Source: a virus (lineage: Duplodnaviria > Heunggongvirae > Uroviricota > Caudoviricetes). From it: 37,360 nt of DNA. The stretch lies in IMG/VR virus record IMGVR_UViG_2541047905_000010; one strand, given 5' to 3'. Below, piece after piece: positions 2,912 through 12,368 of this stretch. The stretch's first letter is position 1; each line of letters opens with the position of its first letter. Under the pieces are notes generated by a model. The model saw nothing but the letters and a program-made list of their open reading frames with translations. It was not told the DNA's origin and made no database searches. Made by a program: the position numbers and the translations under genes.

Positions 2912-3667
2912 TTAAACTGCTAGTTGCAATTGCATTTCAAAGCGGTCGCGTTGTTCACAATACGCAAGAGAACCAGGGCTATTGTGTGCCTCAATCCGTT
3001 CTACCATTAATGCTGCGCGTGTCTCTTTACTTGCAGGTGCATAAGCCCCAGACCAGGCTTTATCAATACCGATGTTTCGAGCGACGTTCGTACTATCTGC
3101 GCTGGCTAAGGGTAATTTTGTGAATATCAGCGGATTTAACATGCGCAATCCATGTAGTTTCGTAACCAGCTGACCATGCCCATCAACAATGTGACGAATC
3201 AGGTCTTTCATTCTGGCTACCGCAAGAGTTGGGCGCTTTACGTCATAGTCGCCACAACTACCGATAGCCACTCGCGGAAACTCATTGCACAAATGAATAA
3301 ATCGCTCGTCACTTTCATTCATGTGCCACACTGGAACGCCAGCTAGTTTTCCGTGAGGCCACTCATTCAGAAGCGCATCATTTTCCTCCTCTCCGCCATC
3401 AATAACATCCGGGATAATGGCAAAATCGAATCTTGGGTGATTCTTCCAGCGAGCAACAAACTCGTAGTAATCGCTCCAGTCGATTTTGTTTTTGCCAGCT
3501 GCTTTCCAGGCGGTGAATGCACCGTTGTCCAGCGCGAACGACTGACAGTATTCAGCCGCGAGATTGATCTGGCCTGAATGCGCAAAACTGATAAACGCAT
3601 GTCGCCCTTTCCATGCTCTCATTGCGCACGTATCAGGAGTAATAGGCCCACCGTGGTAGTGAATCAT
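2912..3667 (-). CDS. Hypothetical protein (251 aa from the second Met; the track ORF extends to 3709)
   Basis: AAGGAGAG ribosome-binding site 6 nt upstream of the ATG at 3667, placed 1 nt after the upstream gene's stop codon; no family recognised by eye. Confidence 0.55.
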   Translation of the reverse strand: MIHYHGGPITPDTCAMRAWKGRHAFISFAHSGQINLAAEYCQSFALDNGAFTAWKAAGKNKIDWSDYYEFVARWKNHPRFDFAIIPDVIDGGEEENDALLNEWPHGKLAGVPVWHMNESDERFIHLCNEFPRVAIGSCGDYDVKRPTLAVARMKDLIRHIVDGHGQLVTKLHGLRMLNPLIFTKLPLASADSTNVARNIGIDKAWSGAYAPASKETRAALMVERIEAHNSPGSLAYCEQRDRFEMQLQLAV

Positions 3668-3668
3668 C

Positions 3669-4076
3669 TCACTCTCCTTTGATGCGAATGCCAGTAGCGC
3701 GGATTGCATCGATGACTTCAGAAACTTTGTATGCCATTACCGTTTGGTAATCATCGTGAAAATCTGTTCGATGAAGCATGCTGCTACGTTCCGGGAGCAG
3801 TATTTCCCGCGCTTCCAGTTCTGCAATGCGCTTTTTTGCTGCTTCCAGTTCATCCAGTAATTCCAGCACGGTAGCCGGATTAGCCTTGGCAACAAAATCC
3901 CGGACTGGCTTACAATCAATCTCCGCAATGGGTTGATACGATGTGTAGCCATGCTGTCTTGTATAACTACCGTGACGAATAACGAAAAAATCACCATTTA
4001 TTTTTTTAGCCTGCCACTTATCTTCACCGGCTTTCTCTGCCGCTTCACGCAGTGCCTGAGAGTTAATTTCGCTCAC
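3669..4076 (-). CDS. Ead/Ea22-like protein
   Basis: 135-aa ORF with a coiled-coil segment (LLDELEAAKKRIAELEAREI) characteristic of Ead/Ea22-like proteins in lambdoid early-left operons. Confidence 0.55.
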   Translation of the reverse strand: MSEINSQALREAAEKAGEDKWQAKKINGDFFVIRHGSYTRQHGYTSYQPIAEIDCKPVRDFVAKANPATVLELLDELEAAKKRIAELEAREILLPERSSMLHRTDFHDDYQTVMAYKVSEVIDAIRATGIRIKGE

Positions 4077-4876: not shown

Positions 4877-5037
4877 ACAGCTCCCCGTTTATTATTTATC
4901 TCCTCAGCCAGCCGCTGTGCTTTCAGGGGATTTCTGATAACAGAAAGGCCGGGAAATACCCAGCCTCGCTTTGTAATGGAGTAGACGAAAGTGATCGCGC
5001 CCACCCGGATATTATCGTGAGGATGCGTCATCGCCAT
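4849..5037 (-). CDS. Hypothetical small protein (lambda orf60a-like position)
   Basis: 62-aa ORF overlapping the exo start region; positional assignment. Confidence 0.35.
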
Positions 5038-5708
5038 TGCTCCCCAAATACAAAACCAATTTCAGCCAGTGCCTCGTCCATTTTTTCGATGAACTCCGGC
5101 ACCATCTCGTCAAAACTCGCCATGTACTTTTCATCCCGCTCAACCACGACATAATGCAGGCCTTCACGCTTCATACGCGGGTCATAGTTGGCAAAGTACC
5201 AGGCATCTTTTCGCGTCACCCACATGCTGTACTGCACCTGGGCCATGTAAGCCGACTTTATGGCCTCGAAACCACCGAGCCGGAACTTCATGAAATCCCG
5301 GGAGGTAAACGGGCATTTCAGCTCAAGGCCATTGCCGTCACTGCATAAACCATCGGGAGAGCAGGCGGTACGCATACTTTCGTCGCGATAGATGATCGGG
5401 GATTCAGTAACATTCACGCCGGAAGTGAATTCAAACAGAGTTCTGGCGTCGTTCTCGTACTGTTTTCCCCATGCCAGCGCCTTAGCATTAACTTCCGGAG
5501 CCACACCGGTGCAAACCTCAGCCAGCAGGGTGTGGAAGTAGGACATTTTCATGTCAGGCCACTTTTTTCCGGAGCGGGGTTTTGCTATCACATTGTGAAC
5601 TTCTGAAGCGGTGATGACGCCGAGCCGTAATTTGTGCCACGCATCATCCCCCTGTTCGACAGCTCTCACGTCGATTCCGGTACGCTGCAGGATAATGTCC
5701 GGTGTCAT
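5028..5708 (-). CDS. exo: Lambda exonuclease (Red-alpha, 226 aa)
   Basis: 226-aa ORF matching lambda Exo from memory ([40 protein letters not shown]...). Confidence 0.97.
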
Positions 5709-6490
5709 GCAGCCACCTTCTGCTCAGTGGCTTTCTGTTTCAGGAATCCAAGAGCTTTCACTGCTTCGGCCTGTGTCAGTTCTGACGATGCGCGAATGTC
5801 GCGGCGAAATATCTGGGAACAGAGCGGCAATAAGTCGTCATCCCATGTTTTATCCAGGGCAATCAGCAGAGTGTTAATCTCCTGCATGGTTTCATCGTTA
5901 ACCGGAGTGATGTCGCGTTCCGGCTGACGTTCTGCAGTGTATGCGGTATTTTCGACAATGCGCTCGGCTTCATCCTTGTCATAGATACCCGCAAATCCGA
6001 AGGCCAGACGGGCACACTGAATCATGGCTTTATGCCGTAACATCCGTTTGGGATGCGACTGCCACGGCCCCGTAATTTCTCTGCCTTCGCGGGTTTTGAA
6101 TGGTTCGCGGCGGCATTCATCCATCCACTCGGTAACGCAGATCGGATGATTACGGTCCTTGCGGTAAATCCGGCATGTACAGGATTCATTGTCCTGCTCA
6201 AAGTCCATGCCATCAAACTGCTGGTTTTCATTGATGATGCGGGACCAGCCATCAACGCCCACCACCGGAACGATGCCATTCTGCTTATCAGGAAAGGTGT
6301 AAATTTCTTTCGTCCACGGATTAAGGCCGTACTGGTTGGCAACGATCAGTAATGCGATGAACTGCGCATCGCTGGCATCACCTTTAAATGCCGTCTGGCG
6401 AAGAGTGGTGATCAGTTCCTGTGGGTCGACAGAATCCATGCCGACACGTTCAGCCAGCTTCCCAGCCAGCGTTGCGAGTGCTGTACTCAT
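5705..6490 (-). CDS. bet: Beta single-strand annealing protein (Red-beta, 261 aa)
   Basis: 261-aa [62 protein letters not shown]...; overlaps the exo start. Confidence 0.97.
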
Positions 6491-6495
6491 CCGTT

Positions 6496-6792
6496 TTATA
6501 CCTCTGAATCAATATCAACCTGGTGGTGAGCAATGGTTTCAACCATGTACCGGATGTGTTCTGCCATGCGCTCCTGAAACTCAACATCGTCATCAAACGC
6601 ACGGGTAATGGCTTTTTTGCTGGCCCCGTGGCGTTGCAAATGATCGATGCATAGCGATTCAAACAGGTGCTGGGGCAGGCCTTTTTCCATGTCGTCTGCC
6701 AGTTCTGCCTCTTTCTCTTCACGGGCGATCTGCTGGTAGTGACGCGCCCAGCTCTGAGCCTCAAGACGATCCTGAATGTAATAAGCGTTCAT
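6496..6792 (-). CDS. gam: Gam, RecBCD inhibitor, short form only (98 aa)
   Basis: [21 protein letters not shown]...[10 protein letters not shown]; the reading frame upstream of this Met has an in-frame stop and no start codon. Confidence 0.9.
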
Positions 6793-6867
6793 GGCTGAAC
6801 TCCTGAAAATGGCTGTGAAAATATCGCCCGCGAAATGCCAGGCTGATTAGGAAAACAGGAAAGGGGA

Positions 6868-7158
6868 TTAGCGATTCAGGCCGTTACCGCGTCCGTCGAG
6901 AAAAACTTCCACGAGCAAATCACGGGTATAAGTGCGCTCGATGCCGCGATGCAGATAAAGCCGTCCGCGTAAATTAGCTGATGCAGTCCAGGTACCATCT
7001 TTGTGTTTGACCAGCATTCCTGGCATGACCGCACCTCGATTAACGGTCTGCGTTCCGTAATGTTGATGAACCATAAAAACTCCTGCCCGTAAGCTGGGCT
7101 GCTGAACATATAGAGACTTCTGCGCGTATTCAGGCGGTGGATGGCCGCCGGTTGTCAT
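6868..7158 (-). CDS. Hypothetical protein in the first-gene position of the leftward early operon (96 aa from ATG; track ORF extends to 7278 from TTG with an Arg-rich N-terminus)
   Basis: Only substantial minus-strand ORF between the candidate pL/OL and gam; not recognisably N, kil or cIII. Confidence 0.35.
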
Positions 7159-7295
7159 AACTAAGTCGCCTCGTTGAAGCGACTGAGGTATGAAGTGTTG
7201 AGTTGATTTCAGCTGGTCACACCGACGTTCACGCGTCCGCTTCACCCCTCGCACTCCCCGAAGCCTGCTGAAATTCAAACTGCGGATCTAAGCGG

Positions 7296-7347
7296 TCATC
7301 GCAACGGTGAAACAGGTGGTTACCGTATCGTTGTGTCGTTGCGATGA
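7296..7347 (-). promoter_or_regulatory. 11-bp perfect inverted repeat (tcatcgcaacg / cgttgcgatga) with 30-bp spacer, in the leader of the leftward early transcript
   Basis: Read directly from the sequence; no U-tract follows, so it is not an intrinsic terminator. Confidence 0.3.
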
Positions 7348-7363
7348 ATTTATTTAAAACTAT

Positions 7364-7430
7364 AGTTGTTTTATCGTCAACAACAAAAGTTGTTTTGTCG
7401 GTTGTTTTAAATATAACTGGTTGTATTTAG
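7364..7430 (-). promoter_or_regulatory. Candidate OL/pL operator-promoter region
   Basis: gttgtt-N8-aacaac at 7365-7384 has the same half-sites as the palindrome between the repressor and cro-like genes; further GTTGT repeats follow at 7389-7425. Confidence 0.35.
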
Positions 7431-7516
7431 GATGGATTTATTTTGTGACTTGCATCGCATAGCGATAACTGAAGTGAGGTGTGGTGGTTTTTTGGACGGT
7501 ATGAGTTATGAGGGGG

Positions 7517-7546
7517 AGGAAAAGAAAACCCGGCGCGGTTGCCGGG
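7517..7546 (-). terminator. Intrinsic terminator downstream of the lipoprotein gene
   Basis: Minus-strand RNA: CCCGGC-AACCGC-GCCGGG followed by UUUUCUUUUC, 9 nt after the stop codon. Confidence 0.65.
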
Positions 7547-7554
7547 TATGATTA

Positions 7555-7935
7555 TCAGTCAGCCCAACCTGATTTCGAGTTTATTTGGGTTTCTGACATT
7601 GTGTATTTCTTAATCGTGTCATCGTTAAAAAGAATAGTAAGTTCTTTTTTCGTACCGTTCGTTCCATTATGGAATAATCCATAGAATGGAATAAAAGTGG
7701 TGCCATTAACTTTTACTTTTGCAAAGGCGTACTTCCAGATCTCGTTTCCACTGTCAGTATATGAAACAGCATCAGGAGAACCAAAGTAAGATTTAACCTC
7801 ATTCTTGGTTGTTTTACCTTCCTGAAGTTTAGACTGGACACTAATTTCAGTTTCATTTTTGAGTTGCTGGTTGCCTGAAGAAGCACACCCAGCCAATACA
7901 GATGCCATCATGGCAGCGATTAGGATTTTTCTCAT
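7555..7935 (-). CDS. Lipoprotein (signal peptide with LAGC lipobox), BamE/OmlA-like fold suspected; lysogenic-conversion moron
   Basis: MRKILIAAMMASVLAGCASS...; AT-rich codon usage; sits directly downstream of the repressor gene on the same strand and has its own terminator. Confidence 0.8.
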   Translation of the reverse strand: MRKILIAAMMASVLAGCASSGNQQLKNETEISVQSKLQEGKTTKNEVKSYFGSPDAVSYTDSGNEIWKYAFAKVKVNGTTFIPFYGLFHNGTNGTKKELTILFNDDTIKKYTMSETQINSKSGWAD

Positions 7936-8164
7936 TTTATGTTTCCATTCATTATAATCAGAAACATCTTAACATAATGATTCGAAATAAAAACCGCTAC
8001 GAGATAGGGGGACATTTTGCTGACAGTAGCAACAAATCTCAGCTAACAACGAGAATATTTACTGAAATATGCAAACAGATTTGGCGTTCTTATAGAGAAT
8101 TTAGTGCAATATCTAATCCGAGTGGTATAAACCTTAACCTTCGCTCCCTTAAGTCGTAGATAAA

Positions 8165-8854
8165 TTAACCATGCTTCCTGTACGTCTGCGGCATGCTTCC
8201 AATGACCTTACCGAATATGAACACCCGGTTCATCTCGTCTTTCTCGATCGGGTCCCACGGCGAGTAGCTCTTGTTATCAGAGATAACCAGCAGCTTATCC
8301 TTCATCATTTGAAGACGTTTTACATGGGCAGTGTCGTCGTACAGAAACGCATAGATGCCATCACCGTCGAAAGATTTAACAGTGATATCAACGAACAGCA
8401 GGTCACCTGGTTCGATCGTCCCTGACATGCTGTCACCTCGCACGTTAATGATGCGGATATTTTCCGCCTTCCTGCCATCGAACATGTGACGAGCATCGTC
8501 AAACGAGTACTCAACCGAGCGTAGAACTTCTACAAACTCACGGTTGATTACACCTGGCCCGGCACTGACTTCTATATCAAGAACGTCAATTTTGAAGTAT
8601 TTGGAATGGCTGACAGTTGATTGTATTGGTTGCACTGTACTGTCTGACATATTTCCAACGCCAGAAGATAACCATTCTGCGCGCACACCCAAAGCGTTCG
8701 CGATCTCCACGATTTTAGTTGTTTGGTTAGCTTTCCCTGTTTCGATTTTCTGAATAGCAGCCTGGCTAACCCCGACCAAATCCCCAAGCGCCTTTTGTGT
8801 AAGGCCTCGCGCTAATCTGGCTTCTTTAAGTCTTTCTGAGAGTGTTGTTTTCAT
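8165..8854 (-). CDS. Prophage repressor, HTH (XRE) + S24 LexA-like peptidase domain (CI-type, not lambda cI)
   Basis: 229 aa; N-terminal LTQKALGDLVGVSQAAIQKIETGK helix-turn-helix; C-terminal Ser/Lys autocleavage module (GDSMSGT...KRL); divergent from the cro-like gene. Confidence 0.9.
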   Translation of the reverse strand: MKTTLSERLKEARLARGLTQKALGDLVGVSQAAIQKIETGKANQTTKIVEIANALGVRAEWLSSGVGNMSDSTVQPIQSTVSHSKYFKIDVLDIEVSAGPGVINREFVEVLRSVEYSFDDARHMFDGRKAENIRIINVRGDSMSGTIEPGDLLFVDITVKSFDGDGIYAFLYDDTAHVKRLQMMKDKLLVISDNKSYSPWDPIEKDEMNRVFIFGKVIGSMPQTYRKHG

Positions 8855-8958
8855 AGATCAAATGTACAACCAAGGTTTTATTTCATCAAACGAAAATGGT
8901 TGTTGACTAAAAACAACCATAGTTTTAATCTTGATTCGGATTAACCACGGAGGTTGTT
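8855..8958. promoter_or_regulatory. OR / pRM-pR divergent promoter-operator region
   Basis: Palindrome atggttgtt-gactaaa-aacaaccat at 8896-8920 overlapping a TTGACT -35-like hexamer; further ACAACC/GGTTGT half-sites at 8866-8876 and 8952-8957. Confidence 0.6.
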
Positions 8959-9189
8959 ATGAACCCAGCAATCAAAACAGCGATCAATATCGTTGGTTCA
9001 CAAAAGAAACTAGGCGATGCCTGCGAAGTTTCACAGCAGGCCGTCTATAAGTGGCTTCACAACAAAGCAAAGGTATCCCCTGAACATGTCGGCAGCATTG
9101 TTACGGCTACTGGTGGAGTTGTGAAGGCATACCAGATTCGCCCGGATCTTCCGAAGTTGTTTCCACACACCGAAAAGAACGCAGCTTAA
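8959..9189 (+). CDS. Cro-like regulator (YdaS/Cro family HTH)
   Basis: 76-aa ORF divergent from the repressor; GGAGG ribosome-binding site; resembles Rac/CP-933P YdaS-type Cro. Confidence 0.8.
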   Translation: MNPAIKTAINIVGSQKKLGDACEVSQQAVYKWLHNKAKVSPEHVGSIVTATGGVVKAYQIRPDLPKLFPHTEKNAA

Positions 9190-9201
9190 ATTTCCATTTC
9201 A

Positions 9202-9213
9202 CGCTCTTTAACA
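9202..9213 (+). promoter_or_regulatory. boxA-like antitermination element (CGCTCTTTAACA)
   Basis: Matches the boxA consensus GCTCTTTAACAA at the position expected for nutR (just downstream of cro); no obvious boxB hairpin follows. Confidence 0.4.
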
Positions 9214-9258
9214 ATAAGCAATCAACTTAACAGTCAATTCAAACTAAAGGAGTCAATT

Positions 9259-9798
9259 ATGCAACCACTTACATACCAACAGACTAGCGGATTTATTCCG
9301 ACTGCGGTGATAAATCGTTCTCAAACAAAACAAGCTCCAGGCCACGAAAAAATCCGTGATGCCGTCCGCGCCTGGTCGGCTGTAGATAATCAGGATGTCG
9401 TTGCCGCACTCATTGTGAATGAGTATCGGGAGCAGGGCGACGGCACCATCGATTTCCCTGATGATGTCAGCCGTGCACGCCAGAAGCTGTTCCGCTTCCT
9501 CGATAACAAATTCGATTCTGAAAAATACCGAAATAACGTGCGTGAACTGACCCCGGCAATTCTGGCGGTACTACCGCTGGAATATCGCGGTTACCTGGTT
9601 GAGCAGGATAGCTTCATGACTCGGTTGGCTGAAATGGAAAAGGAACTCAGTGAGGCAAAACAGGCTGTCATTCTCAACGCACCACGCCACCAGAAACTGA
9701 AGGAAATGAGTGAAGGTATTGTGTCGATGTTTCGTGTGGACCCGGATCTGGCTGGTCCATTAATGGCGATGGTGACCACCATGCTGGGGGCAATATGA
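9259..9798 (+). CDS. YdaT-family protein (proposed CII functional analogue)
   Basis: 179 aa; occupies the cII slot; motif LTPAILAVLPLEYRGYL resembles the YdaT family as recalled. Confidence 0.65.
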   Translation: MQPLTYQQTSGFIPTAVINRSQTKQAPGHEKIRDAVRAWSAVDNQDVVAALIVNEYREQGDGTIDFPDDVSRARQKLFRFLDNKFDSEKYRNNVRELTPAILAVLPLEYRGYLVEQDSFMTRLAEMEKELSEAKQAVILNAPRHQKLKEMSEGIVSMFRVDPDLAGPLMAMVTTMLGAI

Positions 9799-9884
9799 CA
9801 GGTTCAGAAATGGCGAAAGTCGGTCTGCGGGAACAGAACCGACTTTCAGGTGCAAATCGTAACACACTCATTGCGGGAGGAATT

Positions 9885-10814
9885 ATGGCAAACACTGCTG
9901 AGATATTCAATTTTCCAGTGCCGGATGCGGCACAAAAGGAGCCGCGCGTGGCAGATCTCGATGATGGTTATACGCGCATTGCAAATGAGTTGCTGGAAGC
10001 TGTGATGCTGGCCGGATTAACACAGCACCAGCTTCTGGTCTTCCTGGCTGTCATGCGCAAAACATATGGCTTTAATAAAAAACTGGATTGGGTGAGCAAC
10101 GAGCAACTTTCCGAGTTGACCGGGATATTGCCGCACAAGTGTTCTGCTGCAAAAAGCGTTCTGGTAAAGCGTGGGATTCTTATTCAGAGCGGGCGGAATA
10201 TCGGCATTAATAATGTGGTCAGTGAATGGTCAACATTACCCGAATCAGGTAAGAAAAATAAAGTTTACCTGAAAGAGGTAAATTTACCTGAATCAGGTAA
10301 GAAAAGTTTACCCAAATCAGGTAAAGGCGTTTACCCGAATCAGGTAAACACAAAAGACAAACTAACAAAAGACAATATAAAACCTTTTTCGTCCGAGAAT
10401 TCTGGCGAATCCTCTGACCAACCAGAAAACGATCTTCCTGTGGAGAAACCAGATGCTGCAATTCAGAGCGGCAGCAGGTGGGGGACAGCAGAAGACCTGA
10501 CCGCCGCAGAGTGGATGTTTGACATGGTGAAGACCATCGCGCCATCAGCCAGAAAACCGAATTTTGCAGGGTGGGCTAACGATATCCGCCTGATGCGTGA
10601 ACGTGACGGACGTAACCACCGCGACATGTGCGTGCTGTTCCGCTGGGCATGCCAGGACAACTTCTGGTCCGGTAACGTGCTAAGTCCGGCCAAACTCCGC
10701 GACAAGTGGACCCAACTCGAAATCAACCGTAACAAGCAACAGGCTGGCGTGACAGCCGGAAAATCAAAACTCGACCTGACAAACACTGACTGGATTTATG
10801 GGGTGGATTTATGA
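9885..10814 (+). CDS. O: Replication initiator O (lambda O family); track ORF starts at 9795
   Basis: N-terminal region VADLDDGYTRIANELLEA...RKTYGFNK matches lambda O; ori iterons embedded in the coding sequence; GGAGG ribosome-binding site before ATG 9885. Confidence 0.9.
   Translation: MANTAEIFNFPVPDAAQKEPRVADLDDGYTRIANELLEAVMLAGLTQHQLLVFLAVMRKTYGFNKKLDWVSNEQLSELTGILPHKCSAAKSVLVKRGILIQSGRNIGINNVVSEWSTLPESGKKNKVYLKEVNLPESGKKSLPKSGKGVYPNQVNTKDKLTKDNIKPFSSENSGESSDQPENDLPVEKPDAAIQSGSRWGTAEDLTAAEWMFDMVKTIAPSARKPNFAGWANDIRLMRERDGRNHRDMCVLFRWACQDNFWSGNVLSPAKLRDKWTQLEINRNKQQAGVTAGKSKLDLTNTDWIYGVDL
10236..10385. repeat. Origin of replication: four to five ~19-bp iterons (tttacccgaatcaggtaag-type) plus A-rich tract
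   Basis: Direct repeats at about 10236-10253, 10283-10301, 10307-10325, 10329-10347 with a degenerate copy at 10264-10282, then cacaaaagacaaactaacaaaagacaatataaaa. Confidence 0.85.
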
Positions 10815-12323: not shown

Positions 12324-12340
12324 CAAAAAAATTTCATATG

Positions 12341-12368
12341 AACCCAGTTGGCGCTGGGTTTTTTATTT
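12341..12368 (+). terminator. Intrinsic terminator after the secreted-protein gene
   Basis: aacccag-ttggcg-ctgggtt hairpin followed by ttttatttc. Confidence 0.65.

Follow-up and report, generated by a model that had tools for sequence, protein, structure and literature searches.

Introduction

KilR (b1352) of the Rac prophage of E. coli is a 73-aa inhibitor of FtsZ, encoded ahead of the recombination genes in a leftward early operon. Its toxicity is relieved by overproduction of FtsZ (PMC5793797, PMC12482147), it also acts on MreB (PMC12482147), and its gene is silenced by Rho and NusG (PMC5793797). Lambda Kil, an FtsZ inhibitor of 47 aa, occupies the slot upstream of gam, and its gene is not related in sequence to rac kilR (PMC5793797). 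In lambda, the first place past pL belongs to N and nutL. HK022 and HK639 are N-less lambdoid phages with a structured RNA, put, at the start of the pL transcript; put has a two-stem core and a second copy in the right operon. In phi80 (tL1; M11919, X13065) and HK639 (twin terminators; NC_016158), two hairpins follow a gene, the phi80 'N' and HK639 gp44, respectively, and a strong terminator.

Here, we compare the start of the leftward early operon of another prophage with these systems. The window, by which we mean the whole stretch of 37,360 nucleotides that was analysed (IMG/VR record IMGVR_UViG_2541047905_000010), had been given a preliminary description from its letters alone. This description saw no recognisable N, but an unknown protein with an arginine-rich N-terminus and an 11-bp inverted repeat in its leader; it proposed a divergent N-type antiterminator with its RNA recognition element and, as a fallback, a kil-like or host-modulating protein. 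The fallback was right. Very probably, the leftward early operon of a lambdoid prophage without N begins here, with a KilR-family gene behind a leader that descends from a decayed tL1. The KilR-family protein is already known and annotated at this place; new here are the ancestry of the leader and a covarying hairpin within it.

Gene Content and Map of the Left Operon

By its gene content, taken from the list of open reading frames and from family searches, the window is a lambdoid prophage (Table 1). Just one substantial ORF lies between pL and gam, as had been stated. It can be read for 136 codons from a TTG, with the N-terminus MNFSRLRGVRGVKRTRERR, and it has in-frame ATGs at 7158 (96 aa, MTTGGHPPP) and at 7074 (68 aa, MVHQHYG).

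The lipoprotein gene between cI and OL is BamE/SmpA-like (PF04355, E 1.6e-4; PHROG 3135, E 3e-48) and has its own terminator at 7547-7528; in relatives, the rex slot holds unrelated genes, such as one for an ASCH-domain protein in 4A7. On the left arm, a 265-aa ORF (2912-3709, minus strand) is a Tgt/DpdA-like gene, with a match to PHROG 887, 'queuine tRNA-ribosyltransferase' (E 7e-104), that covers only profile positions 7-267 of 509. The mosaic joint at the end of kilR has 95-99% identity with lambda/Stx-type phages, whose kil is otherwise unrelated, and many Stx and lambda-like phages match the query at positions 687-768 only.

Table 1. Features of the window around the start of the leftward early operon.
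Feature	Position	Strand	Basis or remark
Strong leftward terminators beyond exo	4372-4354, 1678-1658, 1647-1628, 1451-1432	-	
exo	5028-5708	-	
bet	5705-6490	-	
gam	6496-6792	-	
Last codons of kilR and kil-gam spacer (mosaic joint)	6793-6874	-	common to lambda/Stx-type phages
ORF under study, 136 aa from TTG	6868-7278	-	
kilR-type gene, 68 aa (MVHQHYG...GLNR) and stop	6868-7074	-	profiles, Rac KilR alignment, third-position variation, RefSeq
Shine-Dalgarno AGGAG (7084-7080) and 5-nt spacer ahead of ATG 7074	7075-7084	-	direct reading
Hairpin B, GGCGG-CCATCCA-CCGCC	7133-7149	-	GC stem; HK639 and phi80 counterparts
Hairpin 2, 16 bp over 18-nt arms, two internal mismatches, 3-nt loop	7155-7193	-	inverted-repeat search
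G-rich untranslated leader segment	7195-7311	-	no codon periodicity; 1-nt and 5-nt indels
Hairpin 1, 11-bp stem, 30-nt loop	7296-7347	-	repeat search and folding
pL-start motif	7345-7321	-	phi80 (L006) ~2273-2291; HK639 (L218) 2258-2283
OL operators and predicted pL	7352-7430	-	inverted copies of OR/pR; hexamers by direct reading
BamE-like lipoprotein, rex slot	7555-7935	-	
S24-type cI repressor	8165-8854	-	
YdaS-family Cro	8959-9189	+	
YdaT-family protein, cII slot	9259-9798	+	
O	9795-10814	+	
Strong terminator between P and Q	12340-12361	+	

The KilR-Type Gene

The gene consists of the last 68 codons of the ORF only, and going by homology its product is an FtsZ inhibitor of the KilR family. 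NCBIfam NF008465 (PRK11354), 'FtsZ inhibitor protein', matches it over model positions 1-67 of 73 (E 3.6e-17) with 62.1 bits, short of the curated cut-off of 92 bits; on this showing, the protein is related to Rac KilR but falls outside its narrow subfamily. The match to PHROG 294, 'Kil protein for bacterial septation inhibition', takes in the whole protein (residues 1-67 on profile positions 13-79 of 83, E 1.7e-37). BLASTP aligns it with Rac KilR from residue 1 (MVHQHYGT versus MIAHHFGT) at 36% identity (E 9e-13). Rac KilR falls in the same NCBIfam and PHROG families, is of like length, and is encoded at the same place ahead of the recombination genes in a leftward early operon. The window gene, likewise small, stands directly upstream of gam-bet-exo, and kil is next to recombination genes in HK225, HK639, CobraSix, KO-TP1 and S9-5 as well. 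The C-terminal tail differs, being LPVKAESW in Rac KilR, where it is critical, and a shorter, different GRGNGLNR here. The upstream genes differ also, since kilR is the first gene past pL in the window, whereas Rac has sieB, ydaF, ydaG and the KilS small RNA before it. With lambda Kil, the 68-aa protein shares the slot upstream of gam, the kil-gam spacer, the extreme 3' end of the gene and the presumed role, but no sequence similarity.

The limits of the gene are consistent across annotation and homology. RefSeq WP_000233577.1 is exactly the 68-aa form, named 'phage encoded cell division inhibitor protein', and RefSeq leaves 7075-7350 intergenic. Annotated kil genes are 207-210 nt long in HK225, KO-TP1, CobraSix and S9-5. 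GenBank phage records name the ORF Kil, with starts that vary by submitter to give 68, 125 or 139 aa. In eight other genera or species, homology begins only at ATG 7074 (one base earlier in one locus); it starts at this ATG in genomes of Citrobacter, Kluyvera, Enterobacter, Silvania and Pseudocitrobacter. In one locus (L133), ATA replaces ATG 7074. The protein that the preliminary description called unknown therefore has a clear homologue of a different function, which that description had itself named as grounds for giving up the antiterminator.

In the E. coli K-12 Rac locus (L005), RefSeq annotates the KilS small RNA in the kilR leader, at 6406-6503, and so kilR leaders can be independently expressed RNAs. 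We considered the Rac kilR leader and KilS as relatives of the window leader, and by eye they are unrelated to it.

The Extension Upstream of kilR

The arginine-rich sequence that had been taken for the N-terminus of the protein does not behave as translated sequence under selection. Our alignment took in 61 distinct copies, drawn from phages and viral contigs. In kilR (7074-6871), the variable sites at codon positions 1, 2 and 3 number 0, 2 and 17, so that 17 of 19 are in third position. In the extension (7278-7075, same frame), they number 10, 6 and 9, and the two distributions differ (Fisher p = 5e-4). Because the counts in the extension are flat, periodicity is absent in every other frame as well, on both strands. 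The extension has frame-breaking indels in single copies, namely one deletion of 1 nt and insertions of 1 and 5 nt. An extra T in two loci (L182 and L210) puts ATG 7158 out of frame and leaves kilR intact, and the phi80 and HK225 counterparts of 7158-7100 use a different frame, which ends in a stop after 21 codons. The flat distribution and the frame-breaking indels show the extension to be non-coding, an untranslated leader that is free of stops in the kilR frame only by chance. Its arginines come from the G-rich stretch itself, in which the C/G ratio is ~0.5. For the 136-aa form, Pfam gives no family at E up to 1; PHROGs give nothing on the extension, their matches beginning at residue 60 or later. 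A translated arginine-rich motif of the lambda N type should have a coding signature and a match to an N family, and the extension has neither. In all likelihood, then, the 136-aa and 96-aa versions are accidents of the reading frame.

The leader is nevertheless widespread, and part of it varies little. A 276-nt leader query (7075-7350) finds matches in 2225 of 5426 complete E. coli genomes (41%). The G-rich segment 7311-7195 was seen only directly between a pL and hairpin 2. Non-singleton polymorphisms occupy 9 of its 117 positions versus 14 of 68 third positions of kilR (p 0.019), and the segment probably has some function. Its variation is too low for a covariation analysis, and the whole leader folds like its shuffles (z -1.25). 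Two common polymorphisms, 7279 and 7240, turn G.U pairs of the predicted fold into Watson-Crick pairs.

OL, pL and the Predicted Start of the Transcript

The placement of OL and pL upstream of the ORF is borne out by an inverted copy of the OR/pR sequence (7354-7395 versus 8888-8928), with 19 nt matching at 95% and 26 nt at 73%. By direct reading, pL consists of a -35 hexamer TTGACG (7380-7375), a 17-nt spacer and a -10 hexamer TTAAAT (7357-7352). A consensus promoter scan leaves pL unflagged because the -10 hexamer has no A at position 2. The start is predicted at about A7345, which would lie within the left arm of the 11-bp repeat, and its CATCG context is found also at the pL of phi80 and of HK639.

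The first 25 nt of the predicted pL transcript (AATTCATCGCAACGACACAACGATA, 7345-7321) match the HK639 and phi80 pL at 21 of 25 positions, beyond what shuffles give. These ~25 nt around the pL start are conserved across phages with different operators and immunity. The stretch includes AACGAT, which we take to be the -10-like hexamer that induces a sigma-dependent pause at lambda pR'.

The 11-bp Inverted Repeat

The perfect 11-bp inverted repeat is present as described (arms 7296-7306 and 7337-7347, 100% complementary, 30 nt apart), and by direct reading no U-tract follows it. Folded over its full length, this hairpin 1 has -19.2 kcal/mol and z = -4.1 against shuffles. A perfect inverted repeat of at least 11 bp arises in 18 of 3000 dinucleotide shuffles of 6793-7450 (p ~0.006), so that it is more than expected by chance. 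With the start at A7345, 9 of the 11 pairs would be transcribed, as a 5'-terminal stem-loop; folded from there, it has -14.7 kcal/mol (z -2.3).

The repeat had been proposed as an RNA recognition element, and this is where the proposal weakens, since close relatives do not keep hairpin 1 as a structure. Of 61 unique relatives, 48 have an A.C mismatch at 7337. Positions 7345-7347 of the left arm vary, and the right arm has no compensating change. One class of loci has an unrelated promoter, with the recombination joint at 7311, within the loop. In three types of relatives that were folded, the region has z of -0.6 to +0.4. As judged from these sequences, hairpin 1 is stable only in this immunity type, a lineage-specific feature, and its lack of conservation in close relatives makes it a poor candidate for recognition by a protein. 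A 6-bp pairing of the outermost 5' end (AUCGCA, GUCGCA or AUUGCA) with a constant UGCGAU is possible in each of the three promoter classes. This surviving pairing is a faint hint of a stem at the 5' terminus, with a possible role in protecting that end of the mRNA. We also considered hairpin 1 as an extra operator; its arms resemble AACAAC half-sites only loosely and are 30 bp apart, and we rejected this.

Hairpins 2 and B

Downstream of the G-rich segment, hairpins 2 and B together fold with -25.8 kcal/mol (z -4.8). Hairpin 2, whose 3' arm includes the in-frame ATG 7158, is supported by covariation. Over 11 sequences spanning phages of E. coli, Enterobacter, Klebsiella and Salmonella, pairing holds in 97% of cells, and 4 pairs with 9 cells are changed on both sides. 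None of 500 shuffles reaches this score, and slid registers pair at 23-46%. The near-identical E. coli copies alone contain 0 double changes, so the divergent phages were needed for this result.

The two hairpins form a block of ~60 nt, for which a pattern scan of viral contigs returned at least 120 stretches; among all loci examined, 182 copies have enough readable flank. The block is present also in phi80, HK225, HK639 and Enterobacter, Klebsiella and Salmonella P22-like phages. Past the first nine codons (MTTGGHPPP), the downstream sequence varies in length and frame, which argues that the block does not encode a conserved protein. Its surroundings are those of a terminator region. Of 56 distinct upstream contexts, at least 15 have hairpin 2 right up against an intrinsic terminator's T-run, mostly as TTTTTT followed directly by CATACC. 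Hairpin B has a T-run of its own in several viral contigs (L114, L154 and L183). In HK639 (NC_016158), both flanking stems are annotated as terminators, and in phi80 (M11919), the annotated tL1 starts in hairpin B, just 3' of the N gene.

Hairpins 2 and B of the window are homologous to the hairpins beside tL1 in phi80, HK639 and HK225, and they lie upstream of kil as in HK639 and HK225. In phi80 and HK639, they follow a gene and a strong terminator, and the window has neither of the two. HK639 hairpin B has a U-tract, and that of the window does not: a GC-rich stem with a direct U-tract, as in a tL1 terminator, is not found there, hairpin B being followed by UGAAUACG (sequence directly after the hairpin, TGAATACGCGC). 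The U-tract is removed by a deletion in the window relative to HK639 (CCGCC[TGAATAC]GCGCAGAAGTCT versus CCGCC[AGCATATTTTTCGCACAA]GCGCAGAAGTCT). Hairpins 1 and 2 also lack U-tracts, both by direct reading and in the terminator scan, and the upstream terminator of the tL1 region is absent from the window. Since the hairpins are homologous and the upstream terminator and the U-tract are gone, we read the leader as a decayed tL1: by this comparison, it is a tL1 region stripped of its terminators. Hairpin 2 may still act at the RNA level, as an RNase III site or as a translational shield for ATG 7158. We looked for an antisense small RNA or promoter running through hairpin 2, and there is no convincing promoter on the plus strand.

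Antitermination and Terminators

That N is not recognisable is upheld: PHROGs find none among eight left-arm ORFs and one ORF of the nin region. The first 20 kb of the record of PhiR26_1, a 99%-identical isolated phage, run from int to beyond Q with no annotated N. The 'N' of phi80 is unrelated and is not arginine-rich. A remnant of a phi80-type N/nutL was considered and rejected, as only the first 25 nt are like the phi80, HK639 and Citrobacter-type leaders.

With lambda N/nutL, the locus shares the map position, the first past pL, and it keeps a boxA at the position of nutR. It differs in that N is absent, that neither boxA nor boxB occurs in the pL leader, and that the rightward boxA is not followed by a boxB. 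A nut system would have boxA and boxB in both early transcripts; here boxA occurs only after cro, and apart from the operators, the pL leader has no repeat or hairpin in common with the pR operon. The boxA, CGCTCTTTAACAA, is perfect and lies at 9202-9214 (plus strand), 13 nt past the cro/YdaS stop, with no boxB-like hairpin behind it. Of 221 related loci, 54 keep its 12-mer GCTCTTTAACAA, each in a single copy, and it is opposite in strand to kil in the oriented kil loci that can be checked for strand.

HK022 and HK639, too, are N-less and have structured RNA where the pL transcript begins, as the window does, and the window's first 25 nt are like the HK639 pL start. However, the window has no two-stem put core and no second copy in the right operon. 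We built a put covariance model (R1) from the three put RNAs HK022 putL, HK022 putR and HK639 putL, whose own scores are 71-100 bits. With this model of only three sequences, nothing in the window exceeds 13 bits and the weak matches lie outside the early leaders; the search of the window and its relatives was negative, and we dropped the put hypothesis. An Rfam scan of 6400-9400 at E up to 10 returned noise only. Citrobacter and Kluyvera loci (L009, L012-L015) have another conserved and strongly structured leader (GTTCCGCCAGCCTGGCGACAAGGGCAAAG...) ~200 nt upstream of kilR, with a long stem (GCTTCGCGGTGGTG / CACCACCAGCGAAG) and a short form in L010 and L011. It lies between a pL-like promoter and kilR, again with no N gene.

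From pL to the end of exo, there is no strong terminator-like hairpin. The stretch from pL to gam holds two weak terminator-like matches (6925-6909 and 6843-6826). On the minus strand, the first strong terminator past pL is at 4967-4945, beyond exo and inside an orf60a homologue, at what we take to be the position of lambda tL3; others follow it (Table 1). With the upstream terminator and the U-tract of hairpin B gone, kilR-gam-bet-exo need no antiterminator, and a left operon free of antitermination fits the absence of N, nutL and put.

Model and Alternatives

In the model that we favour, loss of the cI repressor would let pL (7380-7352) fire at about A7345 and produce a transcript that begins with an untranslated leader of ~270 nt. 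AGGAG-N5-ATG (7074) would then start translation of the 68-residue KilR-family protein. By homology with Rac KilR, this protein would block assembly of the FtsZ ring, and possibly act on MreB, so that the host would form filaments during lytic growth. gam, bet and exo would follow on the same transcript, and the 5'-terminal hairpin would at most modestly protect the mRNA 5' end.

The alternatives differ in what they make of the leader. If the 125-136-aa form were made, its arginine-rich N-terminus might bind hairpin 1 or another hairpin of the leader, and the protein would be a divergent antiterminator of the N type, possibly a fusion with Kil. This has some appeal, in that VKRTRERR of the extension seems to resemble the TRRRERR arginine-rich motif of lambda N, some GenBank submitters give a 'Kil' of 125 or 139 aa, and terminators stand further down both early operons of a phage with no visible N. 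However, TTG 7278 has no usable Shine-Dalgarno and the GAGGG at GTG 7245 abuts the start codon, the extension lacks codon periodicity, bears frame-breaking indels and draws no Pfam or PHROG match, and RefSeq keeps the stretch intergenic. Its arginine codons follow from the C/G ratio, hairpin 1 is degraded in the same 48 of 61 relatives that keep the supposed binding motif, and the pR operon has no second copy of the leader hairpins. With a KilR homologue in place of the unknown protein, the non-coding extension and the degraded hairpin, the antiterminator reading fails, and we regard it as extremely improbable. A 96-aa KilR isoform made in addition from ATG 7158, gated by hairpin 2, which would sequester this ATG and the GAGG ahead of it, is unlikely but deserves more weight. 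ATG 7158 and its hairpin are conserved, 148 of 154 E. coli copies keep this ATG in the kilR frame, L133 lacks ATG 7074, and the CobraSix gene is annotated from the equivalent ATG. Yet across phages, only the first 9 codons are conserved, to be followed by 16 to 140 codons in different frames, and the in-frame joint belongs to the E. coli lineage alone, having arisen through a deletion relative to HK225 and HK639. The two loci with the extra T keep kilR with the frame broken, and another locus (L083) has kilR without ATG 7158.

The leader, or part of it (7345-7133), might instead work in cis as an RNA through which RNA polymerase withstands Rho or later intrinsic terminators, a functional analogue of put in the place of N. 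A phage that lacks N yet has tL3-like and stronger terminators beyond exo, and another between P and Q, could use such an element. The prophages with this segment all lack N and tL1, and it turns up in 41% of complete E. coli genomes; its variation is lower than that of synonymous sites, and it has the two pair-strengthening polymorphisms. Against this stand the lack of a put-model or Rfam match, the lack of a counterpart in the pR operon, and a whole-leader fold no better than shuffles; the variation on 7311-7195 is too small for covariation, and hairpins 2 and B are already explained by descent from tL1. We consider this quite improbable, and there is a slightly slimmer chance still that the conserved leader 7311-7133 is a new class of cis-acting antitermination RNA, independent of both N and put. 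The balance is much closer for the idea that hairpin 1 has no function itself, its left arm being the conserved initial-transcribed pL motif and the 11-bp match an accident of this lineage. The 21 of 25 matches to HK639 and phi80 pL, where the right arm is missing, and the uncompensated weakening of the stem in relatives speak for it. The rarity of a perfect 11-bp repeat by chance and the pairing of the 5' end with UGCGAU in all three promoter classes, which fits selection, speak against it, and we put it only a little below an even chance.

Discussion

For annotation, the result means that the 125-139-aa 'Kil' proteins of several phage records include untranslated leader and that it is the 68-aa form that is under selection. 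For the evolution of the early operons, it means that an N-independent left operon can arise simply through the loss of tL1. Were the leader 7311-7133 to prove an antitermination RNA after all, it would give the delayed-early genes a way to be expressed that depends on neither N nor put. N-less lambdoid phages of this kind are very common and viable, with an orphan boxA after cro and with terminators beyond exo and before Q, and the passage of these later terminators and the expression of int/xis and Q are matters that concern the phage family as a whole rather than this ORF.
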